A DNA stretch of 34,409 nt from an uncultured Nitrososphaeraceae archaeon (GTDB lineage Archaea > Thermoproteota > Nitrososphaeria > Nitrososphaerales > Nitrososphaeraceae), in contig CAWIMJ010000002.1 in NCBI GenBank assembly GCA_963837175.1, positions 1 to 34,409 of the forward strand, in the 5' to 3' direction. The translations under genes were made by a program, and so were the position numbers. Positions within the stretch are counted from its first letter, which is position 1. Every line of letters starts with the position of its first letter. The notes under the pieces were generated by a model, which was given only the letters and a program-made list of their open reading frames with translations, was not told the origin of the DNA and ran no database searches. This document shows, piece by piece, positions 100 through 31,818 of the stretch.

Positions 100-1629
100 T
101 TATTTTTCCATAGGCTTGGAGGTAGTAGTCGTTATTGGTGAAGTAGAATTGAGAGGACTACTTACTCCTTGGGTTTGATTGCCAGAAGTAGTACTAGTAG
201 TAGTAACAGCTGCCGCCGGTGTAACTGTTAATGGAAAGTCTGCGTATTCTCCAGTATTGTTGATGTTTCCAACCCTTGCTATGACAGAGCCGACATTCGC
301 ATCATTAAAGGTAAAAGATTGCTGTGCAGAACCATTTTGAGCTATCTTGGCTGCTCTATGTGTTATCATTGTCTCAGGGTCTTCTGCTGGCATAATCATA
401 AAATCATACTGGACATTGTCTTTCTTTTGATTTGTTTTTGGATCAAGAAATTCTAAATTAAATGTTGTAGTATTTGTAGGTTGTATGTTAGCTGGACTAT
501 AAGACATATTTATTTTGTATCTGCCGCCATCTGTTAATTTTTCCATAGACTTGGAAGTAGTAGTTGCTGTTGTTGTTGAAGTAGTGTTACTAGTAGCGAC
601 TGCCGCCGATGCTCCTGTTCCACCTGGCTGTAAAGTAAACTTCATCGATTCATTAGAAGAAGAAGATGATGCCTGTCCAGTTTTATTATTTACTTGTTCA
701 GCAATTTGAATAACTGTAGGTTTTGGTATCATAAAATGAATTACATCTTTTTGCGGATCAGTATCATCTAGCACTACATGTTTAGTCACGTCAATATCAT
801 TCACTGTACCTATATAGGATCTATTTGCAGCAAATTCTGATGGTTTTGGAACTGTGACTTCTTCGTGAACTAGTATTTTATTCTTTTCTAATCTTGTAGT
901 ATTCCAATCAAATGGCATAGTAAACTGCATCTGTCTTTTGCTTTCATCGAACTTAAAGGCATTTAATTTGTCATAATAAGAAATTATTTGAATTGGGAGT
1001 TGTTTACCTTGTATTATTATCTGTTGCTCCTCTGTGTTGCCAACACTTAACCAGCCATCATAGACAGGTTGCTTGTCATCTGGAATAAAAGTCCTATCAA
1101 AGTCGACTGTTAATATCCTCACTATAAAATGGTATAAACCGCCTTCTAGAAATACTGGCCCTTCAGCTATTACAGGACTATTTTCTGTTCCCGTGTATGC
1201 TTGCAAAATTGGATCCTGTTCGCCATAGACTGTTACTAAAGATGTATTTTTGGGTCTCATAAGTAATCTCAAATCTCCATTGTGATCATGGAACCAATCT
1301 GAAAGTAGTTTTTTACCATTTTTCTCTATTGTTATAAAATATGTTACATGTTTTAGCCCTTCTTTTGTATTTGAATCAAAGAGCTTAAACTGAATAATTG
1401 GCTTCTGGTCCTGGCTCTTCAATGTCTCTGTTGTAACCACAGGAGGTGTCATTTTGATAAGCAAATCTGCTTTTCTATTTCCAAAAGACGCCGATAGTTG
1501 TTCCATGAACAGGCCATCACCAAAAGCAGGCTTCATTGGCATAATTAATGAAAAAGACGATATGAAAATAACTGCAATAGTAGAAGCAGCTAAACCACAT
1601 AGAAGAATCAACTGTTTTTGTGACTGCAT
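100..1629 (-). CDS. Exported thaumarchaeal surface protein with Thr/Ser-rich linkers; C-terminus probably truncated or frameshifted
   Basis: N-terminal signal-like hydrophobic segment followed by AFGDGLFMEQL. The internal motif SMEKLTDGGRYKI restarts at the end as PMEK-(frameshift)-TDGWQYKI. Confidence 0.7.
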   Translation of the reverse strand: MQSQKQLILLCGLAASTIAVIFISSFSLIMPMKPAFGDGLFMEQLSASFGNRKADLLIKMTPPVVTTETLKSQDQKPIIQFKLFDSNTKEGLKHVTYFITIEKNGKKLLSDWFHDHNGDLRLLMRPKNTSLVTVYGEQDPILQAYTGTENSPVIAEGPVFLEGGLYHFIVRILTVDFDRTFIPDDKQPVYDGWLSVGNTEEQQIIIQGKQLPIQIISYYDKLNAFKFDESKRQMQFTMPFDWNTTRLEKNKILVHEEVTVPKPSEFAANRSYIGTVNDIDVTKHVVLDDTDPQKDVIHFMIPKPTVIQIAEQVNNKTGQASSSSSNESMKFTLQPGGTGASAAVATSNTTSTTTATTTSKSMEKLTDGGRYKINMSYSPANIQPTNTTTFNLEFLDPKTNQKKDNVQYDFMIMPAEDPETMITHRAAKIAQNGSAQQSFTFNDANVGSVIARVGNINNTGEYADFPLTVTPAAAVTTTSTTSGNQTQGVSSPLNSTSPITTTTSKPMEK

Positions 1630-7055: not shown

Positions 7056-8759
7056 TTAGGTGATAGGTAGACTAAATGAAAAGGTGGCACCTTTCTTTCC
7101 ATCTGAGTTATTTTCAGCCCATATTCTGCCACCATGGGCTTCAATAATGCTTTTTGAAATAAACAACCCTAATCCAGTACCTTTATCAGATTTTGTAGTA
7201 AACTTTGTAAATAGTCTTGGCAATATTTCAGGATGTATTCCTGCTCCACTATCTCTCACACTCACTATAACGTGATTAGAGCTACTAATAAGATAATCAC
7301 TTCCTTCCTCTTCTTCTTCTTTATTCCTACCCTTTTTTTGTGTCACTTTTACAGATATCGATATAGCTCCTTCTTTGGTGAATTTTATAGCATTATATAG
7401 TAGATTTGCAATAACTTGGTATATTCTTACTTTATCTGCTTCTACAAATATAGCCTCCCTTGGTTCTATAAATAATATTTTTAATTTATTAGAATCAGAG
7501 ATTTGCTTTTCGACATCTTTTATAACATTTAATATTTTTTTATTTATGTTGAATTTTTCTTTGTTTAGTTTTAATGACTGACTTTCTATTTTAGTAACAT
7601 CTAGTATATCTTCTGTAAGTCGTTGGAGTCTTTTTGCATTTCTGATTATAATATTAAGTAATTCAAGTTGTTCGGTATCTTTTATTTTAGCGTGAAGGAC
7701 CTCAGAGAAACCAAGTATTGGTTGGATAGGAGTTCGCAATTCATGGGCTGCCACATTAATAAATTCATCTTTCATCTTTTGTATCTCTTTTAGTCTTTCA
7801 TATTCTCTTAGTTTTTCATATTGAATACGCTCATTCCAAAGTAGTTCAAAAAATACTTTGGAGGAATCTATACCAACTTTACTGTTTGAGTATACAACAA
7901 ATCCAATAGCTTCTGAAAAGTCTTCAAATCCTGGTTCTTTAAGCTCAAATCTCATAAACCTTGAACTATCTACTATAAACAGTCCGGAATGAGAACCTTC
8001 GCTGTTTTGAATCCTAATATCAGGTGCCTTCTCTATAATTTTTCTTATTATGTGTGAATTCTCAGCTGTTGATGGACAGATAATTCTGATTGTTGCACCT
8101 TTCATTGCCCCTCTTCTTTTGGCCGATGCTTCTATCAGATAATTAATAATCCCTAATTTATCTGACCTAACTATGGCTTGGCTATTTGCAAAGAGTAATA
8201 GAGCTTCCTTCTCTATTGACTTTGCAAGATCAATAAACACATTCTTTGCTTTTTCATTATCGGTGATAATTTCATAAAATTCTGATTCTATTCCCTCTTC
8301 AATTTCTCTTATTTTTTCATTTGCAACTATTGATTTATTCCAAACATTATCAAAAATATAGTGCTGCTGTTCTATGACTTCCTTTATATTGCAATAAGTA
8401 GCTTGTAATCGTTCTTCTTGCAAACTTACAGCTCCTAAATATTCTATCTCATTTAATCCAAAGTTAGCTTCAATCTTATCTGAATGACGAACATCATCAA
8501 CTAATTTCATTAGCTCTTTACAATATTTGATATTTTCTTTTGTAATTTCAATGATATATCTTTGTCTTATGCCTTTATTTTTAGAAGCAATAATTGCCTT
8601 CCTTATTGGTTCAAATGAAAATATCAATGACGGAAATTTAGAATTTCCACAAACATCTACTCTGTGCTTTGCATTATAGAAAACATCTACTATCGTGTTT
8701 ATTACTTGAGCACTATGTAATATTTTGGTCTTATTTGCAGCGTTGTGGAAGAGCAACAT
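7056..8759 (-). CDS. Soluble sensor histidine kinase (HisKA + HATPase_c), Nitrososphaera type
   Basis: H-box AAHELRTPIQPILG, N-box NLLYNAIKF, G1 DSGAGI, G2 GTGLGL; no TM segments; no response regulator in the window. Confidence 0.95.
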   Translation of the reverse strand: MLLFHNAANKTKILHSAQVINTIVDVFYNAKHRVDVCGNSKFPSLIFSFEPIRKAIIASKNKGIRQRYIIEITKENIKYCKELMKLVDDVRHSDKIEANFGLNEIEYLGAVSLQEERLQATYCNIKEVIEQQHYIFDNVWNKSIVANEKIREIEEGIESEFYEIITDNEKAKNVFIDLAKSIEKEALLLFANSQAIVRSDKLGIINYLIEASAKRRGAMKGATIRIICPSTAENSHIIRKIIEKAPDIRIQNSEGSHSGLFIVDSSRFMRFELKEPGFEDFSEAIGFVVYSNSKVGIDSSKVFFELLWNERIQYEKLREYERLKEIQKMKDEFINVAAHELRTPIQPILGFSEVLHAKIKDTEQLELLNIIIRNAKRLQRLTEDILDVTKIESQSLKLNKEKFNINKKILNVIKDVEKQISDSNKLKILFIEPREAIFVEADKVRIYQVIANLLYNAIKFTKEGAISISVKVTQKKGRNKEEEEEGSDYLISSSNHVIVSVRDSGAGIHPEILPRLFTKFTTKSDKGTGLGLFISKSIIEAHGGRIWAENNSDGKKGATFSFSLPIT

Positions 8760-13064: not shown

Positions 13065-14036
13065 TTAGACAAAGGCAGCAGTTAGTGCTATAGTATTATT
13101 TATCAATGCTTCAACAAGGTTTTCGTAATTCTTTTCGACCAAGTCTACTAAGCTATCTTTATTGGATTCAAGGTATTTGGTAACGTTATCGTTGTTATTA
13201 TCTTTACATTGCTCACTGTCATTCTCAGTCAGTATTTTGTAAATTATATTAATCATTTGTGGATCTGATTTTAACGTCTGGATCAGTCCAGTAAAAGCTA
13301 CTGATATAACTTGTTTATTTTCTGATAAGGCGGCTTTAACATTTTCTTTGACGACCTGTTTTAGATCATCATTGTTTGAAATCTTTACAATCAACTTTTC
13401 TAATCTATCGTTTTGAGCAATAAGCTCCTGTAACTGTTGTTCTTTTCTCTTGCAATCTTGCTCACAAGAGAATGCAGTTTTATCTAATATAGATATTTTA
13501 TAATTCAAAGCCTCTACATCTTTTATCAATCCTTGTCTAATACATTGCATCTTATCTACCTGCTCTTTAACCTGTCCATAGAGACTTTCCATATGAGGAA
13601 GTCTATCGGCAGCAATCTCTACAGCATTAACTACTTGCTCTATACTCATGCCTTTTTCGTTTATTAGTTGTCGATATAATTTCAAAAATGGTCCTAGTTT
13701 GCCGTTTGTCTCTTTGAATATAGAGTTGAGAATATCCAGGCGCTTTAATTTCCAATATTCCCTATAGTATTTAGTTGCTTCTGGCTCTCTTAGGCTTAGT
13801 GGGATAGCCACTTCTATAGGCCGCTTACCTTTAGAAAATAATTCATAGGCTTTAGAAGATATCTCTTCTTGCTGTTGCTGATGTCTATATTTTTGTCGTC
13901 TGGTTTCTTCTTCCTTTATAATAATGTTGATGTCACGTGGTGAGATTCTTTCTATTTGTGCGATTTGAGCATAAGTCTTGTGCTGATTAAAATATAGATC
14001 TATTACACGCTTTCTTCTTTCTTCTGTTATCTGCAC
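13065..14036 (-). CDS. HTH plus coiled-coil protein of a multicopy Nitrososphaeraceae family; tail degraded
   Basis: N-terminal HTH-like VIDLYFNQHKTYAQIAQIERISPRDI, a second HTH-like segment and a heptad-rich middle. An out-of-frame remnant tail (SNQSDTYRI...KGNIAE*) runs to 12945. Confidence 0.75.
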   Translation of the reverse strand: MQITEERRKRVIDLYFNQHKTYAQIAQIERISPRDINIIIKEEETRRQKYRHQQQQEEISSKAYELFSKGKRPIEVAIPLSLREPEATKYYREYWKLKRLDILNSIFKETNGKLGPFLKLYRQLINEKGMSIEQVVNAVEIAADRLPHMESLYGQVKEQVDKMQCIRQGLIKDVEALNYKISILDKTAFSCEQDCKRKEQQLQELIAQNDRLEKLIVKISNNDDLKQVVKENVKAALSENKQVISVAFTGLIQTLKSDPQMINIIYKILTENDSEQCKDNNNDNVTKYLESNKDSLVDLVEKNYENLVEALINNTIALTAAFV

Positions 14037-16670: not shown

Positions 16671-16909
16671 ATTCTCTCATTTTGCATCTCTGGTATTTTG
16701 TCATGTCAACGGTCTTCCCTTTTTATCAATAGAAATATCCTTCCAAAATTAGAATTCCATATAATCCATATTCTAGCCATGTAAGAAATAGATGTAATAG
16801 GTATTACTTACCATAGTTCCCAACACAAGGTGTTTTTCATCTCATAATTTCCCCGAAGTATTTGTATATAAGTAAAAAGATCTATTACTTTGATCTATGG
16901 AATAAGAAA

Positions 16910-19561
16910 ATGTCCTTTGCTAAAGATGCTATATCATCATTAATAGAATCAGACCAAACCAAGGAATATGTACATACTGCAGTAAAATCAACTGTACCTA
17001 CTTTAGTACAGTTTGGCCTTGGATTTGCAGTTCCTTTCTTATCTCCTATAATTATAGCTGCATCATCACATCTGATTTTAAAAGGATTAGAAATTGCCGG
17101 AGATAAAATAAAAGTAGCAGATGATAAAATACAACAATACAAAGGCCAAACTGGAACTAAAGGCTTTCTTGCAAAAATGGCATCTCCAGCTTTAGGAGTA
17201 CTCAAAAAGGTATTTCCTGCCACTGAAAAAGAACTTTATGAAGCCTTAACTGACAGTAACAAACTAAAGCAGTTCCTTTCTGAAATATTAGAAAACCCAA
17301 AGAAAAAACAAGAGTTTGAAGAAAGCCTAAAGAAATTTTTAACTGGCAAATATGGAGATTTTGAAGAATTTCAGAGAAATGTCAAAGACACATTAGGCAT
17401 AGAAGTTGATAGGTTAGCTTTAGAAGCATATACAGAATTCACAAGTATAATTTACAATAGTGAAATATTAAATAAGATTATCACACTTTCTGGAACCTCT
17501 GAGCAGATTAGAATTAATATTGAAGAGAGCATAAAAGAAATTCATAAAGATTTTGAAGACAAATATGGTGAAATTAAAAATGAAATAATAAGTCTTCGTG
17601 ATACCTTTTATGGAAGATATGGATTATACAGGCTCACTCCTAATTACTTTGAAGACTATGTTGATACAAAACAAGATATGGAAAGATGGAAAGAGGGTTT
17701 TAGCTTCCAATCATTATCATCAATTAAGCAGAATAAAGAATTTAGGAGAGATAAAATCCTAGAAGAGATTAAGAAAAGAATTGAAGGAAAAAACCGACAG
17801 TTGATAGTAGCTGGGTCTGGAACTTCAAAAAGCACTATACTTATGGAAATCATTTGTGATTATTATGACAATGGCTATGAAATACTTTGGAATAGAGGGG
17901 ATGCTGTCATAAATAATGGTAATGATATTATAGACTTTATCGGAAAGCTATTGAATGACGGTAACAGAGTATTAGTTGCTGTAGATAATGTTCATGATGA
18001 AAGAAGATCTGCAATATTTTATGCTATGGATCAGCTCTCATTGCATAATAAAAGTAAAAATCTAAGATTCATTCTCACAGCTAGACTTCCAGAATATGAT
18101 TTATTAGTTGATCCTCAAAGGTTGCTAATCCAAGTGCAAAAAGAATATAGAGGTTCTCTGCAAAGATTTAGAGATGAATCTAATAGAAAGGATTCTCTTT
18201 TAAAATATGAAATACCATTCTTTACACACGAAGATATTAGAGGTTTTATTAGAAAGTATAGAGAAGAAGAAATGATATCTTCTACAACAGAAGAAGAAAT
18301 AGTTGTTGGCTCAGAAAAAATCTACAAGGATACAAATGGCCATCCTATAATGGTGAAGTTTGCTGTTATTGGAGAGGGTCTTCGTAAGGACGTTGAAGAT
18401 AGGTATCTTGATTATCTGATTGATCAAACTAGTAAGATAGCTGATCCATCAAAGATTCAAACTATACTTGTATGTTCCCTATTAGATATAGCTGGCTTGC
18501 AAATAACTGACAGATTACTTAATGATATGAAGATAAAGAAATATGCAAAAAACCTAAGACATGCTCTATTATATCATTATCCTGATGGTGGGATATGGAA
18601 GACCATACACCCAAGATGGGATTTAGAACTACTATCTTTTTTGTTTACAGATATTGATGATGAAGACATAACAGACCAAAGACAGAGATACCTTAAGAAA
18701 GCGATAGCCTCTATATTCAGCATCAAGGATGAACAAATAACTGTTTCAATTATAACAACAATGTATGATATTGCAGCTGATACTGTCGATGGAGTTACGA
18801 AAATTCCTATAGATGTTGTTGATAATGTAATAGAAAATCAAATGCACACTTCTGATTATCTAAGCAATGAGACAAAGGTCGATTTATATGCAGTAATCAT
18901 TGCAAATGATTATTATAAGCTTAATAGATTTAATGATGTTGTCGATAAATGTAATAAAGCTTTATCTATAGAGCCTAATAATATTTATGCATTAAATAAC
19001 AAAGCTGCAGCTCTTGATAAGTTAGGTCAATATCAAGAATCTATACCATATTATGATAAAGCTTTATCTATAGAGCCTAATAATATTTATGCATTAAATA
19101 ACAAAGCTGCAGCTCTTGATAAGTTAGGTCAATATCAAGAATCTATACCATATTATGATAAAGCTTTAGCGATAGATCCAAATCATGTTTATGCATTGTA
19201 TAACAAAGCTGCAGCTCTTGATAAGTTAGGTCAATATCAAGAAGCTATAGAATGCTATGATAAAGCCTTATATATAGATCCAAATCATGTTTATGCTTTG
19301 AATAACAAAGCTGCAGCTCTTGATAAGTTAGGTCAATATCAAGAAGCTATAACATATTATGATAAAGCCTTATATATAGATCCAAATCATGTTTATGCAT
19401 TGTATAACAAAGGTAGTGCTCTTGCTAAACTAGCTAAATTTCAAGAAGCTATAGAATGCTATGATAAAGTTTTAGCGATAGATCCAAATCATGTTTATGC
19501 TTTGAATAGCAAAGATATTATTCTTGAGTATATGGGACTACATGAAGAATCTACTAATTAA
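16910..19561 (+). CDS. STAND-class P-loop NTPase with C-terminal TPRs (NLR-like architecture)
   Basis: Variant Walker A AGSGTSKST, Walker B VLVAVDNVH, sensor FILTAR, GxP motif TNGHP, and about 6 TPRs. ATG at 16910 preferred over TTG at 16862. Confidence 0.8.
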   Translation: MSFAKDAISSLIESDQTKEYVHTAVKSTVPTLVQFGLGFAVPFLSPIIIAASSHLILKGLEIAGDKIKVADDKIQQYKGQTGTKGFLAKMASPALGVLKKVFPATEKELYEALTDSNKLKQFLSEILENPKKKQEFEESLKKFLTGKYGDFEEFQRNVKDTLGIEVDRLALEAYTEFTSIIYNSEILNKIITLSGTSEQIRINIEESIKEIHKDFEDKYGEIKNEIISLRDTFYGRYGLYRLTPNYFEDYVDTKQDMERWKEGFSFQSLSSIKQNKEFRRDKILEEIKKRIEGKNRQLIVAGSGTSKSTILMEIICDYYDNGYEILWNRGDAVINNGNDIIDFIGKLLNDGNRVLVAVDNVHDERRSAIFYAMDQLSLHNKSKNLRFILTARLPEYDLLVDPQRLLIQVQKEYRGSLQRFRDESNRKDSLLKYEIPFFTHEDIRGFIRKYREEEMISSTTEEEIVVGSEKIYKDTNGHPIMVKFAVIGEGLRKDVEDRYLDYLIDQTSKIADPSKIQTILVCSLLDIAGLQITDRLLNDMKIKKYAKNLRHALLYHYPDGGIWKTIHPRWDLELLSFLFTDIDDEDITDQRQRYLKKAIASIFSIKDEQITVSIITTMYDIAADTVDGVTKIPIDVVDNVIENQMHTSDYLSNETKVDLYAVIIANDYYKLNRFNDVVDKCNKALSIEPNNIYALNNKAAALDKLGQYQESIPYYDKALSIEPNNIYALNNKAAALDKLGQYQESIPYYDKALAIDPNHVYALYNKAAALDKLGQYQEAIECYDKALYIDPNHVYALNNKAAALDKLGQYQEAITYYDKALYIDPNHVYALYNKGSALAKLAKFQEAIECYDKVLAIDPNHVYALNSKDIILEYMGLHEESTN
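18956..19513 (+). repeat. 102-bp tandem repeat (about 5.5 units) encoding 34-aa TPRs
   Basis: Units start at 18956, 19058, 19160, 19262, 19364 and 19466; the first two are identical in nucleotide sequence. Confidence 0.95.
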
Positions 19562-19874
19562 TCAAAGACAGACTTAATCCTTTCTAATTCAGGAAATGAA
19601 TCACGACAAAAGTTAATAGGGTCTACGCTAATATTTTATTGTAGTTCTAATATGCTGAAGGTTTATGCTCTAAACGATAGGAGATCAAATAGTTTCCTAG
19701 AGTTACAACTTTTTTAATAACCGCCTTAGACCATCTAAAAATAGTAAATATGAATTAAGTATTTATGCTCCGTTACCACAATGTAGGAAGGAGAATTTTA
19801 TACTGGGAATCCACCGATTAAGCAGGAAGATTCCATCCAGACAAGAATCAAAAACTAGAACTTATGTAATATGA

Positions 19875-20883
19875 TGCTTTGTTGCATGATTCATTAACTT
19901 TTAAGTGATGTTCATCTGACCGATCTGCATTTAGCTTACTAATAGTAATTATTCTATGTATATGATTGACTGGCCTCTCTATAATGAATCACTAGTTAGA
20001 CGTGGTCAAGTTCTCTTAGATTTTGATATACTTGATGGATGGGATCATGAATTATCTCAAATGAACCGTGGTAAGGTTGGCGAACCCTACGATTATCCAA
20101 ACTCCTTTATTCAGCTTCTAGGTTATATGAGAGTATATTTTCATCTACCATATAGACAAACACAAGGTGTAGTTATAGCTCATACAAGTACAAAAGTACC
20201 GTTCATACCTCATTACAGTACTATTAGTAGACGTATAAACAGACTAGAGATCAAAATCAATGAGAAAATAGGAGATGATATCGTGATTGCTTTAGACAGT
20301 ACAGGTATCAAAGTAGCTAACAGAGGAGAATGGATGCGGCATAATAAATGGCACGTTAGAAAGGGATATCTGAAAATACACGTATCCGTAGATATCAAGA
20401 AGAAAAGAATCCTATCTTTGGAGGTCACAAGTGAAGAGGTACATGATGGCAAGATGCTAAAGAAGTTGGTAGATAATGCTTCTAAAAATAATAATGTGAA
20501 GCGTGTGTTAGCTGATGGTATGTACGATAATAATAAGAATTTTAGATATCTATCAAAGAACCATATTAAACCTGGTATAAAGACCAGAAGTAATTCCAAG
20601 GTCAAGACAACTACTAACTGTCAAGCTAGAAACATGTCTGTAGTAAGACAACAAGCAAACCTCAAAAGATGGAAGCACAGCGTAAGCTATGGACAGAGAT
20701 GGATGACAGAAACTGTCTTTTCGTGTATGAAAAGGATGTTCGGAGAACACGTATCTGCGAGAAAGTTTCCTAACATGATAAATGAGATCTTTCTAAAGGC
20801 ATCTTTGTATAACATGTTTAGTAAGATTATCTGAGTAATCACAGATTATAGCCTTGAAGTTTAGTTAATCATGCAACATAGCA
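19875..20883 (+). mobile_element. IS5-family insertion sequence (IS903-like ends), 1009 bp
   Basis: 17-bp TIRs TGCTTTGTTGCATGATT (19875-19891) and AATCATGCAACATAGCA (20867-20883) with 1 mismatch; flanking direct repeat TAATATGA at 19867-19874 and 20884-20891. Confidence 0.93.
19956..20834 (+). CDS. tnp: IS5-family DDE transposase
   Basis: W..YNESLVRRG, LPYRQTQG, PHYSTISRR, ALDSTG (D1), LADGMYD (D2), YGQRWMTETVFSCMKRMFG (Y-R-E-K motif). Confidence 0.95.
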   Translation: MYMIDWPLYNESLVRRGQVLLDFDILDGWDHELSQMNRGKVGEPYDYPNSFIQLLGYMRVYFHLPYRQTQGVVIAHTSTKVPFIPHYSTISRRINRLEIKINEKIGDDIVIALDSTGIKVANRGEWMRHNKWHVRKGYLKIHVSVDIKKKRILSLEVTSEEVHDGKMLKKLVDNASKNNNVKRVLADGMYDNNKNFRYLSKNHIKPGIKTRSNSKVKTTTNCQARNMSVVRQQANLKRWKHSVSYGQRWMTETVFSCMKRMFGEHVSARKFPNMINEIFLKASLYNMFSKII

Positions 20884-21876: not shown

Positions 21877-22959
21877 TTACCCGGTCTTAGAACTAGCACT
21901 CTTCTTCTTATCATTACCGTCGCCACCATCACCATCACCATCACTAAGATCTATATCTAATGAGTCGCATAAATCTACTACATTACTTTCTATTTCGTTG
22001 ATATCTTGATCTTCAGCTATTACTTTCATAACACGGTCTTTGTTGTTTTTCTTTTGTTCTGCAACTTCAAGAAATCCTTCTACCTTTTCTTGTTCTGATC
22101 GTATTTGTGCCTCTGTCTGTTCAACAATATTGCTTACCTTGTTTCGAAAATGCAGTATGAACTTTCTGATTGCATTTGGATAAATGTCTATTTCATCTGA
22201 GTCCTTATCTTTACTAGGCAATTCAATAGCTCTATTGTAATTTCTCATAGGAAAGCGTTCTTTAATTTTATGCATTATAAAGTCCCAAAATCGTTCGTCT
22301 CCAACTTGTGCAATTACTGCGTTTATTTCTATACGGCTTTCTTTTAAAAATTCGATATCAATGTGTTTAAACCTGCTATCTGTTTTAACTATTTCTTCTA
22401 CTTTGTTTACTAATTTTGTATTTGTTGCATTTACTACAATTCTCTTGTCTTTCTGTAAACCAAAGTGTTCTAATGTAGTATCATCCATAGTTATGAAGTA
22501 TACACTTTCATCACACTTAGATGCTAGATTGATACCAGATAGATCATAGTCCGTAATTACGATAATATTGGCACCGGATTCTTTGGCTGCCTCTATTAGA
22601 TCATGTGCGTATTCAGTTAGATATCCTCTGCTATTAACCATCGCAACACCATATTTGTCGGCGTGCTCCTTCAGTTCGTCTATAATTCCTTCTTTTTCTA
22701 TGAATATTAAATCTGTTCCTTTTGCTGCTAACTCCCTAATAGCATCAAAGCTAACACTTTCCCAACCGCCGTCAAAATACAGCTCAGCTCTTGCACCTGT
22801 AACTATACCTATATCAGCACGCTTTTTGCCTACCTCATCACATATTTTTCTAATTAAAGTTTTGAACCATGCTCTAGTTACCTTGATGTCAAATCTTTGC
22901 ATATCAGGAAGAAGCAAGTACCAAATTGTATCAGTAGATCTCATTTTTTTGGTGGTCAT
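21877..22959 (-). CDS. Topo VIA/Spo11-like TOPRIM subunit (short; Mini-A or Topo VIII-like)
   Basis: TDTIWY (cf. the RDxYY catalytic Tyr motif), FIEKEG (TOPRIM Glu), SRGY, ITDYDLSGI (DxD), RIEINAV; ATGA overlap with the upstream gene. Confidence 0.8.
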   Translation of the reverse strand: MTTKKMRSTDTIWYLLLPDMQRFDIKVTRAWFKTLIRKICDEVGKKRADIGIVTGARAELYFDGGWESVSFDAIRELAAKGTDLIFIEKEGIIDELKEHADKYGVAMVNSRGYLTEYAHDLIEAAKESGANIIVITDYDLSGINLASKCDESVYFITMDDTTLEHFGLQKDKRIVVNATNTKLVNKVEEIVKTDSRFKHIDIEFLKESRIEINAVIAQVGDERFWDFIMHKIKERFPMRNYNRAIELPSKDKDSDEIDIYPNAIRKFILHFRNKVSNIVEQTEAQIRSEQEKVEGFLEVAEQKKNNKDRVMKVIAEDQDINEIESNVVDLCDSLDIDLSDGDGDGGDGNDKKKSASSKTG

Positions 22960-24963
22960 GTCGTAATAGTGTCCTTTTTCTCCTCAGCGTAGTATTCGTA
23001 GTCATAGTCGCTGTTATTGTTCTTGTTGTTGGTCACCAACCCGTGCTCCTTCCTCAGATAATCCATTAGTAGATCTTTTAGCGATTTTTCGCCGCTACTA
23101 CTATGCAGTCGTATTGCATTACGACGCTCCTCTGGTTTTCTGAAACTATAGCCTAAAGCATGAAATGATTTAATTTCAGAAGCTATTCTTTTTACTCCTT
23201 CCATAATTGTTTCGGTAAATGGACTTGTATCTATACGTGATTTATCCTGGCCGTGTGGATCACGTCTTGGTGTTACCAGATTAGCGACTACAAGACATGG
23301 TATTTTTGCGCTATCAGTTGCATATTCGTGAAATCCATAGTGTTCTAAAACACCTAGGATGTTCGTGGTAGCATCATATTCCCTGGTCCCATCATTATAA
23401 GCCGAAACTTCTTTGTATTCGCCTTCAAAAAGACTGCCATATGTTTTTGGTGAAATAGAGTAATTGATTGCGCCTATAAAATCAATTCTTTTTTTTGCGT
23501 GTATTGGATCTGCAAATGGAATAGCCAATATTTCCCAAAAATAAGGATAAGCTATTCCTTTTTTTGTATCTTGATAATATCCATGAATTGACTTATATGA
23601 TGCCTTCTTTTCATCGCTATCTAAGTTGTCGTAAAGTTTTGCAAGCCTTTCGATAAGAACTGCTTTTCTTTGTTGTTTGTTAGCGGTGTACGGTAAGATT
23701 AGCTTCGGTGGAGCAGGCAATGCATTCTGTAATTGCTTATAGAAATACTCTATTTTCCTATTCCGTTTTTTATCATCAAGTAACGATAATAATTTGGCTA
23801 CTGATATCTCATTTTCAGCACTTTTTTTTAGATTACTGCCTTCTCTATATGTTGCAACAAGTATATCGTAGACCTGAGTCTTAGCGGCATGTTTGGGATC
23901 TATATTTACAATGCGTCGTTTGAATTCTTCTGGTGTATACGAATGCACGCTGTTTTGTTTATTCCATGATTCATTTGATATAGGATGCAATGCGTGGTAT
24001 TCTATATTTACCGTTGATTTTGGGGACTCTTCTAATGCAGTAGTTACAAGGGCCTTTGCAAAAGATGCCGCTCCTGCTGTTGTTGTTCTTCTTATTCTCA
24101 TTCTTGTTGTTAGTAGTATTGTCATTATCATTATCGTTGTTATTATTACTACTATCAATGATGCCTACATCTTTATTGTTATTGACGTTGTAATAGTAGT
24201 ATTTTGAGTTATCAGTTATATGAAATCTAAAAGTGATGTCTGTTGTGAATAGGGGATATCTCTTGCAAAAGTCTTCAACGCATCTTCTATCTAAAACGTA
24301 TTTTACTTCATCGATTATTGGTAATACAAGTTCAATCTCTGTATCGCTGTGCGTGAGTTCTTCTCCATGCGTTTCTCCCACTTTAACTATTGCTGTTTGC
24401 CTAACTTTGTCGACATTTAGATATACCTTAAATTCTCTTTTATTGTGGTGGATTATTAAAGGATGCTTTGGTTGCTTATCTTCAAATGTACTTCCATCAT
24501 CATAGTCGACATGAATTAGTATGTATTCAAATGCCAGTATTTGTTTTAATGCATCGCCTAACATTCCCCTGCTTATTATATGGACATCTTGCTTTGATCC
24601 ATAGCGCATTTCATAATCAAATATTGCATCTAGATTTGAGAACACTGGAATATTTTTATAATTTGAGTTGCGAATTTTTAGGCGAAACATTTTATCATCT
24701 TTGTATATATTTACATCAATGACTGTATCGTCTGCGCCTTTGTAATTTTTGCTTAAGAAGTCTACAGCATTATCTAATAACTCTCTAATGCATAGCAAAT
24801 ACCAATCTTGTTTGTTCGAATATCCTGTCCTTAGAGTTACGCCGTCTACAGTGAAATAGTCAATGCTGTGTTTTCTATAGGTGAAAATGTCCTCTACTGC
24901 TGGATTAGTAGCAGGGGGGTCCTCATTTTCTGGCTTGTTGTGAGCTAGATTTTTGTTATTCAT
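22956..24963 (-). CDS. Topo VIB-like GHKL ATPase with transducer, split by one frameshift in an Asn-rich insert (about 24075-24200)
   Basis: IRELLDNAVD (N-box), YGSKQ, SRGMLGDALK (cf. Topo VIB TRGxxGxGxK), SDTEIEL, and distal GQDKSRID (cf. the transducer Lys loop). ORFs 23971-24963 and 22956-24158 overlap across low-complexity sequence. Confidence 0.8.
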
Positions 24964-24978: not shown

Positions 24979-25140
24979 TTATTCGTTTTTGTCTTGTAAT
25001 ACAAGATACCAGTCCCTTTTGTTTGAGTATCCAGTTCTAATGATAACGCCATCCACAGTAACGTAATCCATGCTATGTTTTCTAGAGGTAAAAAAGTCTG
25101 TCATGATGGGGAGTCCTTTGCTTTCTGTCATCATCATCAT
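24979..25140 (-). CDS. 53-aa ORF duplicating the N-terminus of the adjacent GHKL subunit (not in ORF track)
   Basis: MMMMTESKGLPIMTDFFTSRKHSMDYVTVDGVIIRTGYSNKRDWYLVLQDKNE*; 25 of 32 aa identical to DIFTYRKHSIDYFTVDGVTLRTGYSNKQDWYL. Confidence 0.7.
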   Translation of the reverse strand: MMMMTESKGLPIMTDFFTSRKHSMDYVTVDGVIIRTGYSNKRDWYLVLQDKNE

Positions 25141-25169: not shown

Positions 25170-26183
25170 TTACAGGCCGATTGCCTTTTCCACCTTTTTA
25201 GCATATTCTGCAATCTGTTTCTCAAGTTTTTCAACAGGATTAAAAACATCGTTTATGAAATCGATAGCAGATTGGTTTGGATGTTTTCTTTCTTCTATCC
25301 TGCATACCGTATCCTTTCCTATTGATTTTATGTATATGGAAAACAGATGGTTAAGATGCTTCACCTGAACCTTTATTGCTGAAAAGTGGAGCAAGTCGCT
25401 AACTTTAATGTCTTTATTGATATCGCATTCAGTCAGCTCCCATTCTAATACATCGTCAACAATTCGTTCATGCTTGTCTTTTAGCAGATTTATCAGACCA
25501 GCTCTAATCTGTCCAAAGAATTCTATGATACGGAAGTGATCTTCTTCTGTTTCAAGTTTATAGGGATTGTTACTGCATTTAGCATGAATATCCACTGTTC
25601 CTTTGGAATAGAACACATAATCCACTCCGGTTTTACCTATGATTTCTGCATGGTGTTTTCCATTATTTCTCTTGTAATATGGAAGGTCTAACTCTGAATA
25701 ACATTCTGGAAGGACCTTGGTTTTAAAATGCATATTGTGGATGTATAATGGAGCTTCAGGCAGTAATGGAAGTACATAGCCTTCTAATGTATGAACAGTC
25801 GTAAGTTGAAGGCATTGAGAAAGAGGGAATTTAGATGAAGATAGAGTTGGTAATAGTATGCCTACCCCTGAGGGGTCTATTGGTGTATTCTTTGCTATCT
25901 TTTCTATTACTTCAGCTTTAATTGGAGTAGGATAGTATTGCTGTGGTCTCCTGTCTTTTAGTGTAAATAAATTGCCTGTTCTCAGATGATATTTTAAAAT
26001 GTCCTGAGCGTGAGTTTTATGAAGAGCTATTCCTGCATCAATTAAATCTATGTAAGTTATTCCTTTTCTAGTCTTCTTAAATTTATTAGTAGCTATCTCT
26101 ATGATTGTCGAAGAATGAATATATGATCTGTGGCCAGAAAAACACTGCCCGACTAAGTCAAGTGGTGTAATCTTGGTGGACAT
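25170..26183 (-). CDS. wHTH protein with a putative replication-initiator-like C-terminal domain
   Basis: N-terminal wHTH-like GITYIDLI...AQDILK...LFTL...PQQYY; C-terminal LTECDINKD, IYIK and CRIEE recall the Rep_trans motifs RxDxxxD, YxK and RxE; TAATG overlap with the upstream gene. Function is inferred. Confidence 0.55.
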   Translation of the reverse strand: MSTKITPLDLVGQCFSGHRSYIHSSTIIEIATNKFKKTRKGITYIDLIDAGIALHKTHAQDILKYHLRTGNLFTLKDRRPQQYYPTPIKAEVIEKIAKNTPIDPSGVGILLPTLSSSKFPLSQCLQLTTVHTLEGYVLPLLPEAPLYIHNMHFKTKVLPECYSELDLPYYKRNNGKHHAEIIGKTGVDYVFYSKGTVDIHAKCSNNPYKLETEEDHFRIIEFFGQIRAGLINLLKDKHERIVDDVLEWELTECDINKDIKVSDLLHFSAIKVQVKHLNHLFSIYIKSIGKDTVCRIEERKHPNQSAIDFINDVFNPVEKLEKQIAEYAKKVEKAIGL

Positions 26184-28421: not shown

Positions 28422-29856
28422 TTATTCTTCAAATGTTTTCTTTGTTAGTGCTTCTGGCTTGATGTATGCTAATTGTGGATTTCGCTGTATCATTGACATA
28501 ATCTGACTGAATTGTCGGTTCATTTCTTCACGCATAGCCTTCATATCTTTTTCATATTTTTCCTTAAGGATTTTGTTTTCTTGTTCAAGCTCCATTTCTC
28601 TAGTATATTCATTATCCAAATTAACTGGGAGTGCACATCTAGAACAGAAATTCATTCCCGGGCTTATAGATTCTGAACACCTTTTGCATATTAATACTTT
28701 TAAGTTTATATTCTTCAATCCTTGGTTGTCCTATTCCTTCATTTAGTGCAATAAGCGCATTATCCACATCTTTACCTGATAAGTGTATATAGCGTCTAAC
28801 TACTTTTGTTCCATGCTCCCAACCAAAGAAAATACACATTTGTGCTTCTGTTAGATGATTAGCTAAGTGTGTTGCTCTAGAATGTCGCAATATGTATAAC
28901 CTACGATGCTTGTTAATCAATCCTGCATTTGGTAACGTTTCTTCGATTATTTTCTGAGCTCCTCTAAGTCCTAATGGTTGGTTTTTGAAATTTGTTGCTG
29001 TACTTATCCATAAAGGATATTGGTTCTGGTTTGTAAGAGGATGTACCTGTAGCCATTGTTGTAGTAACTTGACAAAAGATATGATCCTTACTCTCCTTTC
29101 GCCCGTCTTTCCCCTCAGCATAAAGACTGCGCCCTTAGAATCTACTTTTATGTCCAGGTTGGTAAGTCGCAAGAACTCCTCAGGTCTTGCTCCACTTTCG
29201 TACATGCACGCAAGAAAAGCTTTTTTTTGCACTGTAGGAGCTGCTTCTATTAATTTCTGAACTTCTTCTTCTTCCAGGTACTCTGACATATCCATATTGG
29301 TCTCTTTTCCTATCTTTTCTTTTCCTAGATTAACAGAAAACCAATTAACTGCTTCCGGATAGTGTTCATTGTTTCCATAAACTATCTTATAATAAAATTT
29401 CAGAATACGTCTGAATTTCTCATGGGTTGATGCTTTATAGTTTTTATCATCCATCCATTTCAATAATGACCTTATATCGTCTTTATCAGCATCTTTGAAG
29501 CTTTTTCCAAGATGTCTTCTCATCAAGAGAAGCGCAGTTATGCACCTAATTATCCATAATATACTGCTTTCTTTATCCTGCATGAATTGTATGAAATTTA
29601 AAACATCAGTTTTATCAGGTTCGTGAAGCTCTGTATTTGCTCTTTTAATCCAATAAGCAAGTTTCTCCTTTCTATGATACAGGTCTCTCATTTCATAGTT
29701 TGTGTTGATATGATGATTGAACTGAGTTTTAAGTATTTGGTCATTAGATGGTTTGTTGTTAGAATAATTCTTGGTTGTTTTGATTTTAGGGATTTGAACT
29801 GAGGATTCAGTGGACTGGGCGGGATTTGAACCCGCGACCACATACTTGCGAAGCAT
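28422..29856 (-). CDS. int: Tyrosine recombinase/integrase with C-terminal zinc ribbon; one extra base at 28698-28701
   Basis: ESGARPEE (R), GKTGER (K), YILRHSRAT (xxxRH), FGW, RRYIHL (Y). Removing one T joins EYKLK to VLICKRC...NFCSRC and a coiled coil. First ATG outside the tRNA is at 29691. Confidence 0.93.
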
Positions 29857-29885
29857 GCATTACTACCAGCCTGAACTACCAGCCC
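29811..29885 (-). tRNA. tRNA-Ala(CGC), intronless, CCA not encoded
   Basis: GGGCTGG...CATGC-TTCGCAA-GTATG...GCGGG-TTCAAAT-CCCGC-CCAGTCC-A folds as a cloverleaf with anticodon CGC, the G3:U70 alanine identity pair and discriminator A. Confidence 0.97.
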
Positions 29886-30406: not shown

Positions 30407-31818
30407 CTAGAGATTTGAATTAGGAGATGATCGAAGTCTCTCTTCTATTTTTATTCGTTCATCTGTAGTAATACTATTAAGTATTTTTTCGCGTGCGTCT
30501 TTAGGAAGTACTTTATCAAATATGTCAGTTAGCTCGTCGGTACTAAGCATATTTAGAAATTCTCCAAGTTTTTGTAGAGGTATATCTAAAAATGCTGCTA
30601 GGTTTTCTGCTGTTGGCTTATCATGCAGTTCTAAAAATTTCTGTACTTCCACTTGATTAAGCAGGGTTCGAAGCTGAGTACGTTCAGTAAGATCTACAAT
30701 TACTGCTGAACCAGGAATAATCGCAGTAATCGCAAATCCTAAATTTTGAGCAACTGGAATTATCTTAGCTCGTTCAGATGGATTATATTTTGTTGAAATT
30801 TCTTGACGTGTTTCTGGTGAAAGTATGATGGCATCTCCGTGTTGTTCTAACTGTTGTGGTGTAGTTCCAGCTGATGATTCGGTTGATATAGGAAGTGCTT
30901 TTGGTAATGTTGATGGCTGGTATGATTGAGCTTGTACATCTGGTAGCATCTTAAAAGATTTGCTCATACTGTTTATTACTAGATACAAAATTTCTGCACG
31001 TGCAGCTGGACTAAGTCTGTCAAGGAACATCTTGGATTCAACCAAGTCCTGTCTTGTATCAGGTATGACCATATTATCTACTATATTATTTAAAAATTTT
31101 GTACGTTTTTCTGGAGGTTGACTATCAAGATAATCTTCGGATTTGATTACATCTTCTTTAATATCAGATATATCGACAGCTGGTCCTGGCTGTGGTACTG
31201 CGATATTACAGGTTTCGATGCTGGGATCGCAGGACAGTTGTATGAACATCTTGTTGTTCTTTAATGCTGCTGCTATCACCGATAATGCTGCCGATATCAA
31301 AGTTATTTTTGATGGTGGCGCCGCTACTACTACTACTACTGCTACTGCCGCTAATGCTGCTGCTATCACCGATAATGTTGCCGATATCAAAGTTATTTTT
31401 GATGGTGGCGCCGCAGCCGCTACTACTACTGCTACTACTAGCTACTACTGCCGCTAATGCTAGCTGCTATCACCGATACGGCTGCCGATATCACCTACCT
31501 TATTTTTGATGGTGGCGCCACGCCGCTACCGCTACTACTACTACTACTACCGCTACTACTGCTACTACTACTATCACCGTCACCGCCGCTACTACTGCTG
31601 CTATCACCGTCACCGCCACTACTACTGCTGCTATCACCGTCACCGCCACTACTGCCACTATCATCTCCGTCTTTCTGTGCATATATAATCAAAGGATTAC
31701 TTATTATCGAACCAATTAAAATTAAAACTAGTGCTAATAGTGATGCTGCTGTTATAATATTATTTTTTTGGTAGAAAATTTGTCCTTGAAATATTATTCG
31801 ATTTTTTATGTAATGCAT
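30407..31818 (-). pseudogene. Exported Ser/Gly-repeat protein with an MgtE-N/FliG-like helical C-terminal region; several frameshifts
   Basis: Signal peptide ending IYAQ, (SSSSGGDGD)n, three GATIKNNFDIGSIIGDSSS-type units, then helical repeats (FLDRLSPAARAEIL, FLNMLSTDELTDIF). Confidence 0.6.
31262..31660. repeat. Nested low-complexity tandem repeats
   Basis: Three units of about 90-103 bp starting TAATGCT..GCTATCACCGATA (31262, 31352, 31455), then three 30-bp CTATCACCGTCACCGCC(G/A)CTACT units with CTA microsatellites. Confidence 0.9.

Follow-up and report, generated by a model that had tools for sequence, protein, structure and literature searches.

The stretch of DNA considered here, referred to as the window, is a whole contig of 34,409 nucleotides (CAWIMJ010000002.1, assembly GCA_963837175.1) from an uncultured archaeon of the Nitrososphaeraceae. 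On its minus strand, between positions 21,877 and 24,963, lie two adjoining genes whose products are probably the B half (ATPase and transducer) and the A half (DNA-cleaving) of a type IIB topoisomerase, a group which includes the Topo VI enzymes of archaea and plants as well as the meiotic Spo11 complex. An earlier note, written from the sequence without database searches, had proposed a divergent B+A module of this type on an integrated element, and the analysis described here followed up that proposal.

Layout and conserved residues of the module

The 5' part of the B gene (23,971..24,963, minus strand) is an open reading frame (ORF) of 330 amino acids which encodes a Bergerat/GHKL domain with the N-box ELLDN, an altered G1 box (RNSNYKN) and the G2 box GMLGDA, followed by an Asn-rich linker; the frame carries the motifs IRELLDNAVDF, IRNSNYKNIP, RYGSKQ and ISRGMLGDA. 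The 3' part (22,956..24,062, minus strand) lies in the +1 frame, which is open from 24,158 down to 22,956, and encodes a helical, H2TH-like region and a transducer with an invariant DKS lysine in the sequence HGQDKSRID. The two parts meet at a run of four T residues (24,060..24,063, minus strand), where the reading frame of B shifts by +1 relative to intact homologues. The A gene (21,877..22,959, minus strand; 360 amino acids) starts with MTTKKMRSTDTIWY, carries the motifs FIEKEG and TDYDLSG and comprises a truncated 5Y-CAP, a Toprim domain, a T2BI box and a C-terminal helical tail, with the stop of B and the start of A overlapping by 4 nucleotides (ATGA). The RELLDN, YGSK, SRGMLG and DKSRI motifs which had led the earlier note to a GHKL protein resembling Topo VIB are all present and in place, but B is not one open frame.

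Across 50 aligned B sequences, D64 and N65 of the N-box are invariant and E61 is conserved in at least 90%, the box aligning with ELIEN of the host's own Top6B. The G2 box (G133-M-L-G136-D-A138), which is of the GxxGxA type, is invariant in the same sequences, as is D572-K573, which aligns with DKGK of the Halalkalicoccus jeotgali Topo VIII and contains the putative switch lysine. As the earlier note had recognised, RNSNYKNIP stands in place of the DxGxG of the G1 box: when the clade of the window is aligned with Topo VIII and Top6B, it has N99 in the column of the Asp and N101 in that of the first Gly. D-x-G is retained in six fused relatives (P0305, P0340, P0361, P0383, P0279 and P0324) and likewise in Topo VIII and Top6B, so that the altered G1 box is a derived and conserved state and not a sign of decay.

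A structural model for B was made with AlphaFold from P0122, an intact homologue 80% identical to the B of the window (predicted local distance difference test, pLDDT, 80.7; predicted template modelling score, pTM, 0.79). In Foldseek searches this model matched Topo VIB chains with E values from 2.4e-14 to 8e-13 over about 580-610 columns (template modelling (TM) score on the target 0.50-0.61), and the match extends across the transducer; GyrB, Hsp90 and MutL were found at about 1e-6 only. The model of A matched Top6A (1d3y, E 6.5e-6; also the M. mazei and S. shibatae proteins, with 9o8p and 2zbk_A among the entries), MksG (8.7e-5), Spo11 (8urq, 7e-4) and JetD (1e-2), at TM scores of only 0.36-0.46 and with high root-mean-square deviation. 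Both folds on which the earlier proposal depended, a GHKL-transducer fold as in Topo VIB and a Toprim fold as in Top6A, were recovered in this way.

The residues of A were counted in 65 family rows, chosen to span split and fused forms, and compared with 21 reference rows from Top6A, Topo VIII and Mini-A. Y14, E88, K89, D137, D139, G142 and E211, the Glu of the T2BI box, are each present in all 65 family rows, and E88, D137 and D139 of the Toprim domain align with all 21 reference rows save for one Top6A row at D139. Tyr14, the candidate catalytic residue of the short TOPRIM protein in the earlier note, falls in the column of the YY/FY Tyr in Top6A, in Topo VIII and in Mini-A; the residue before it is aromatic (W in 36, F in 17 and Y in 10 family rows). 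The T2BI box reads RIEINAV in the window (209-215), and its pattern R/K-x-E-x-x-A/S is kept in the family, where R209 is Arg in 60 rows and Lys in five, and position 214 is Ala in 34 and Ser in 27. At position -4 from the Tyr, the Arg of the RxxY/FY motif is found in 21 of 21 reference rows but in 1 of 65 family rows, the others having Ser (27), Asp (14), Asn (14) or Gln (9). R29 (64/65) and R47 (65/65) are conserved in the family and are candidates for standing in for the lost Arg(-4).

Only 13 residues precede the catalytic Tyr of A, compared with about 90 in the host's own Top6A, which agrees with the observation in the earlier note that the usual N-terminal region is missing. The added helical tail that it described is also seen, at about residues 222-340 of the AlphaFold model (pLDDT 85.6), and part of it aligns with the C-terminal extension that the H. 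jeotgali Topo VIII carries. A homodimer of A was predicted with an interaction prediction score from aligned errors (ipSAE) of 0.75, the best control reaching 0.00; among solved structures, the mark used for this score was attained by 20 of 30 homodimers and by 1 of 23 monomers, counts which hold only roughly here as an alignment of our own was used. At least 68% of the contacts were common to the runs, with a partner pLDDT of at least 78. Since most of the confident contacts fall in residues 229-340, the model suggests that the helical tail is a dimerisation domain. Dimers of Top6A and Spo11 have been solved, but without the tail that holds the predicted interface of A.

Homologues of B numbered 202 among the 8000 candidates scored, and those of A came to 136; because of these numbers, the invariant or near-invariant motifs and the matching folds, the motifs of the window are not a chance resemblance. 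A profile of A matched 767 representatives of clusters at 50% identity at E <=1e-3 and 258 at <=1e-30. Near-full-length B homologues are single proteins of about 585-668 amino acids, while fused B-A open frames measure 808-1017 amino acids in genomes and 932-1049 in metagenome loci; among the 150 best representatives, the A part is preceded by at least 450 amino acids in 31 and by 200-449 in 17. All named family members seen belong to the Nitrososphaeraceae, including Ca. Nitrosopolaris. Matches occur in 17 of 401 genomes of the class, a tally which takes in one unpublished genome (G365) on which no other result depends: 13 of 78 in family f1, not counting the genome of the window, 0 of 223 in f2, 1 of 11 in f4 and 2 of 10 in f15.

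Relation to Topo VIII, Mini-A and cellular enzymes

To judge from sequence profiles, the closest known relative of the two window genes is Topo VIII, the name under which the enzymes of H. jeotgali plasmid-5 and of P. polymyxa pPPM1a appear in the available text of Gadelle 2014 (PMC4117785). The A profile scores 47.5 bits against the H. jeotgali protein (profile positions 82-342) and 21.7 bits against that of P. polymyxa, and hhalign comparison with the H. jeotgali Topo VIII gives 97.0% for B (E 8.2e-11, 414 columns) and 97.1% for A (E 6.1e-11). Besides this profile-level homology of both halves, the likeness includes the fusion of B and A in many relatives of the window genes, the missing first half of the 5Y-CAP, the C-terminal extension beyond the Toprim domain, the GxxGxA form of the G2 box and the integrases nearby. 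The T2BI box of the family, R-[IV]-E-[IL]-[DN]-[AS], stands against RVELNAM of Topo VIII, and the YxxRP following the catalytic Tyr, a Topo VIII signature according to the part of Takahashi 2019/20 (PMC7671362) consulted, has its Arg (+3) in 36 and its Pro (+4) in 34 of 65 family rows, that is in more than half of the family, with YLLLP in the window.

The family differs from Topo VIII in several respects. It forms a clade of its own outside the five sampled Topo VIII sequences, has lost the Arg of RxxY/FY in 64 of 65 rows and, in the clade of the window, has Asn for the Asp of G1. Most Topo VIII members are one B-A polypeptide, whereas the window has separate genes, and the split there lies between B and A, not inside the transducer. 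The hosts are Nitrososphaeraceae, while the four archaeal sequences among the 82 Topo VIII reported in PMC7671362 all come from Euryarchaeota as far as its available text goes, and the 767 representatives at 50% identity compare with those 82 published sequences. The divergent lineage of the earlier note holds up in that the family is distinct from the host Topo VI and associated with integrases; it is less isolated than had been supposed, being a profile-level homologue of the H. jeotgali Topo VIII.

A quick IQ-TREE search was run under LG+C20 on the A portion of 86 rows (13 Top6A, 5 Topo VIII, 3 Mini-A and 65 from the family). In the Shimodaira-Hasegawa-like approximate likelihood ratio test (SH-aLRT), support was 100 for Top6A, 100 for Mini-A, 86 for Topo VIII and 98 for the family. 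The family fell neither inside canonical Top6A nor, since it sits outside the Topo VIII clade as sampled, inside Topo VIII, either of which would have counted against the earlier note. Sixteen of the 18 rows with A alone form one clade with 99% support that is nested among the fused forms, so that the division of B and A in the window is derived. With five of the 82 published Topo VIII sequences in the tree, the family may be either a sister group or a deep member of Topo VIII.

Mini-A is the second group of short relatives. Like Mini-A, the A of the family is about 300-360 amino acids long and has a truncated CAP, with the catalytic Tyr, the E/DxD residues and the T2BI Glu aligned, and direct sequence matches exist: A matches PHROG 6247, annotated as DNA topoisomerase, at E 1.8e-7, and a tblastn search returned 17 records (best E 3e-4) for genes of about 300 amino acids named DNA topoisomerase in Casjensviridae and other phages, which we take to be Mini-A because size, motifs and type of phage agree. 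In contrast, Mini-A has no B partner according to the consulted part of PMC7671362, where a "Mini-B" was sought beside Mini-A without success, while in the window family B is adjacent or fused. The Mini-A box, xWELDAL, has a Trp where the A of the window reads RIEINAV; Mini-A also retains Arg(-4) and forms its separate, fully supported clade. The same source lists 23 Mini-A, three of them archaeal and named only in its supplement. Queried with a fused relative, tblastn returned no match from plasmids; of 60 pattern matches obtained when genome contigs were scanned with the single A protein, none was confirmed; and the B model matched only generic GHKL proteins among viral models (about 1e-6). 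In the ESM Atlas, the clusters nearest to that of P0122 by language-model features are two mostly viral ones (Uroviricota) of about 510 amino acids with HATPase_c in 19% and 54% of their members; they are a lead to phage B-like partners of Mini-A which the viral fold search did not confirm.

The cellular Topo VI is a different matter. The host genome has a canonical Top6B-Top6A pair on another contig (C3), canonical Top6A was present in 41 of 41 sampled genomes of the phylum, the host included, and hhalign of the family profiles against the host's own Top6B and Top6A gave only 25% and 0.5%, respectively. The module shares folds and catalytic residues with Topo VI and Spo11/Top6BL, and the degenerate ATP site of the window's B recalls Top6BL, but there is no HMMER match at the sequence level to Topo VI, A lacks the N-terminal section of the CAP that binds B, and the helical tail is extra. 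JetD and MksG share the Top6A-type Toprim fold, with a weak DUF2399 match; neither JetABC nor MksBEF partners were found among the neighbours in Pfam and PADLOC scans, nor a DUF3322/DUF2220 arm in A. JetD is not known to have a catalytic Tyr. The comparison with JetD in the earlier note is sound for the shared Toprim fold, but the likeness goes no further. PADLOC searches with B, A and the recurrent neighbours returned no family beyond JetD at E 0.078 and Old at E 4.6e-4, and an NCBIfam scan of B and A gave no match.

The consulted parts of two reviews (PMC8185306, from 2021, and PMC11894792, from 2024) give only Topo VI for Nitrososphaeria, and a survey of thaumarchaeal mobile elements mentions only type IA topoisomerases in the text available. 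A search of the literature on type IIB topoisomerases in Nitrososphaer- and on Topo VIII from 2021 onwards found no description of the family; the archaeal Mini-A names of the supplement lay outside that comparison.

Interruption of the B gene and the mobile-element setting

Past the frameshift, the first frame of B continues for 30 codons to a stop at 23,971. Where P0122 reads SGVFAKTLV, the window divides the sequence over two frames, with SGIF in the first and FAKALV in the +1 frame, which places one surplus base in the T4 run. The site lies in the Asn-rich linker, which is disordered in the predicted model of the intact homologue. Public contigs from soil and rhizosphere (four runs from four studies) are 99% identical over parts of the module, but none of them spans 24,060-24,063, so that the frameshift is neither confirmed nor refuted and an assembly error may be at its origin. 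Programmed +1 frameshifting at TTT-T was set aside, the close homologues being single frames.

The B gene of the window may accordingly be decaying or mis-assembled, or the module may work as three polypeptides. The last form is conceivable because some relatives have the GHKL part as its own gene ahead of a transducer-A gene, split at the same linker as the break in the window, and because an ATG at 24,099-24,101, in frame with the second part of B, might in principle serve as the start codon of a transducer protein made on its own; a pseudogene and an assembly error are just as possible.

Upstream of B, a relic (24,979..25,140, minus strand) corresponds to codons 1-35 of another allele of B. 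This ORF of 53 codons ends 15 nucleotides ahead of the present B start, and its residues 13-47 align with the N-terminus of B, being 94% identical to the start of P0165, from another B lineage, and 68% identical to the present B. From codon 36 onward, an earlier module has apparently been replaced.

The earlier note placed the module inside an integrase-bearing element, and this is upheld in part. A tyrosine recombinase/integrase gene (28,639..29,856, minus strand) overlaps with its 5' end the 3' part of a tRNA-Ala(CGC) gene (29,810..29,885, minus strand), the likely attachment (att) site, at a distance of 5.7 kb from the module. A search of the window for a second att copy, as a repeat of the tRNA-Ala 3' part, found none. 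Synteny with a genome of the same genus (G351) is limited to scattered multi-copy genes. In the family at large, 21 of 86 loci contain tyrosine recombinase genes: 14 of the 26 that measure at least 8 kb, 3 of the 16 with 5-8 kb and 4 of the 44 that are shorter; some integrase genes stand 13-50 nucleotides from the module, and other neighbours are not conserved. The only other copy of the tRNA-Ala 3' part belongs to a second complete tRNA-Ala(CGC) on another contig of the host genome (G000, contig C16; L040:1465-1540), 97.6% identical over 84 nucleotides and followed by an ORF of 204 amino acids faintly resembling the integrase; that contig has nothing further in common with the window.

Directly upstream of the module lies a gene for 337 amino acids of unassigned family (25,170..26,183, minus strand), whose homologues adjoin the module in three other loci and whose only match in the ESM Atlas (0.78) is an unnamed Nitrososphaerota cluster. 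On the other side, about 1 kb past the 3' end of A, an insertion sequence (IS) transposase gene (DDE_Tnp_1; 19,956..20,834, plus strand) is found; the segment 21,104-21,632 beside it recurs on four contigs of G351 and probably represents a small repeated element that flanks the module. Further on, 2.3 kb past the 3' end of A, an 899-amino-acid STAND-type NTPase is encoded (16,862-19,561, plus strand; nSTAND_NTPase5, E 3e-9) with six tandem TPR units of 102 nucleotides (34 amino acids), the repeats covering 18,813-19,622. In seven loci of the family, an AAA_15-type ATPase of about 580-690 amino acids lies 0.6-1.9 kb from the module (L066:6977-9052, L071:5125-6876, L080:12382-14187 and four more); its match to Old in PADLOC is at E 4.6e-4 only. 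Elsewhere in the window, dense direct repeats rich in GCT/ACT triplets run across overlapping ORFs on both strands (31,262-31,675), and a histidine kinase gene (7,056-8,759, minus strand) and a gene for 323 amino acids of unassigned family (13,065-14,036, minus strand) have many paralogous matches over the G351 contigs.

These observations bear on whether the module in this genome is a dead relic, with a real frameshift, no full-length B and decay inside a degraded integrated element, a reading which we consider quite possible without favouring it. The shift in the T4 run relative to the intact homologue, the IS transposase and repeated segment beside A and the relic of the earlier allele all fit such a history, and relatives show stops or fragments as well (internal stops in 9 of the 30 genome matches listed, genes in several pieces in metagenome loci). 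Against it stand the A gene, whose frame is intact and which shares 88% identity with its nearest relative, and the two halves of B, which retain every conserved motif; the natural splits at the same linker with the ATG available for the second part, and the possible assembly error, also count against a dead module.

Interpretation and alternatives

The reading we prefer, with a probability of roughly 0.7, is that the two genes are the B and A halves of a type IIB topoisomerase from a lineage which, by its named members, belongs to the Nitrososphaeraceae and is a sister or deep branch of Topo VIII. It is based on the Topo VIII homology of both halves, the VIB and VIA folds, the natural fusions, the invariant catalytic residues, the linkage to integrases and the separate Topo VI of the host. 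The lineage has an altered ATP site in the clade of the window, has lost the Arg by the catalytic Tyr and occurs in several states of fusion and fission; its topoisomerase activity is predicted.

In such an enzyme, two A subunits would dimerise, largely via the C-terminal helical tail, and Tyr14 together with a Mg2+ site formed by E88, D137 and D139 would cut both strands of one duplex. Two B subunits would clamp a second duplex upon nucleotide binding and signal through the transducer lysine, and the enzyme would relax or decatenate the DNA of the element during replication or segregation; alternatively, it may do no more than cut DNA, which is what one Topo VIII does in vitro. Because the Asp of G1, which contacts the adenine, is Asn and Arg(-4) is gone in the clade of the window, nucleotide use and cleavage chemistry may differ from those of the textbook enzymes.

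Several observations weigh against this interpretation. HMMER searches of PDB sequences, with single sequences or with the A and B family profiles, returned no topoisomerase, and the Pfam matches stayed below threshold (HATPase_c at E 0.034, DUF2399 at E 4.8e-4). In hhalign, the B profile reaches only 2.7% against the bacterial Topo VIII of P. polymyxa, an enzyme which only the Toprim part of the module matches. The tree was a quick one with five Topo VIII and three Mini-A rows, and it did not recover the branching order of Topo VIII, Mini-A and the family. The canonical G1 box is missing in the window's clade and the Arg(-4) in nearly all of the family, and the predicted interface of the A dimer includes neither Tyr14 nor the T2BI box. 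The borders of the element were found neither by the att search of the window nor by synteny with G351. B is frameshifted in the window and many relatives are broken as well, so the copy at hand could be non-functional. Finally, no archaeal Topo VIII or Mini-A had been characterised according to the consulted parts of PMC8185306 and PMC11894792.

A different function for the same proteins is also to be weighed, in which the lineage, or the clade of the window, no longer passes strands and instead makes nucleotide-gated double-strand breaks in conflicts between mobile elements or in an antiviral role, with a logic comparable to that of the Topo VI-like/Spo11 complex or of the JetD and MksG nucleases. 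This seems unlikely on balance. The degenerate G1 box and the lost Arg(-4) would suit it, as would the patchy distribution (17 of 401 genomes), the frequent pseudogenes with the relic of a replaced allele, the resemblance of the A fold to MksG and JetD, and the neighbouring genes for the STAND NTPase with TPR units and, in seven loci, the AAA_15 ATPase. The G2 box is of the GxxGxA type, and the one Topo VIII of that type which was tested only linearised plasmids, as given in the part of PMC7671362 consulted. However, B, A and the recurrent neighbours have no PADLOC match beyond the two mentioned, SMC-like partner genes are absent, the Tyr and the T2BI Glu are invariant as expected for a covalent and resealable intermediate, and the most constant neighbour is an integrase, as with Topo VIII on integrative plasmids.

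That the module arose by duplication of the cellular Topo VI, or is a JetD nuclease of the Wadjet type paired with an ATPase unrelated to it, is very improbable, for although the sub-threshold DUF2399 and HATPase_c matches and the presence of Top6A, Top6B and JetD among the fold matches point that way, the host has its own Top6B-Top6A pair to which the family profiles hardly align, Top6A is a separate clade with 100% support, JetA, JetB and JetC are not found nearby, and the JetD fold match is weaker than that of Top6A.

The topoisomerase reading can be extended to a large element-borne radiation of type IIB enzymes in soil ammonia-oxidising archaea, in which DxG has turned into Asn-x-Asn and the DNA-contacting Arg has been lost, with a derived clade that uses another nucleotide or none and acts as a regulated DNA breaker, and which would be the first lineage with a short A to have a partner of the "Mini-B" type; in this full form the proposal is speculative and rather doubtful. 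From a single ecological group, the family would contribute natural variants in the hundreds. It spans fused forms, two-part forms split at two points and possibly, in the window, a three-part form, with canonical as well as altered ATP sites, and it is a series in which the coupling of ATPase and cleavage, the role of the Arg by the Tyr and that of the C-terminal domain of Topo VIII, for which dimerisation is predicted, can be asked about. It also marks integrative elements in the Nitrososphaeraceae, whose mobile elements are poorly known.

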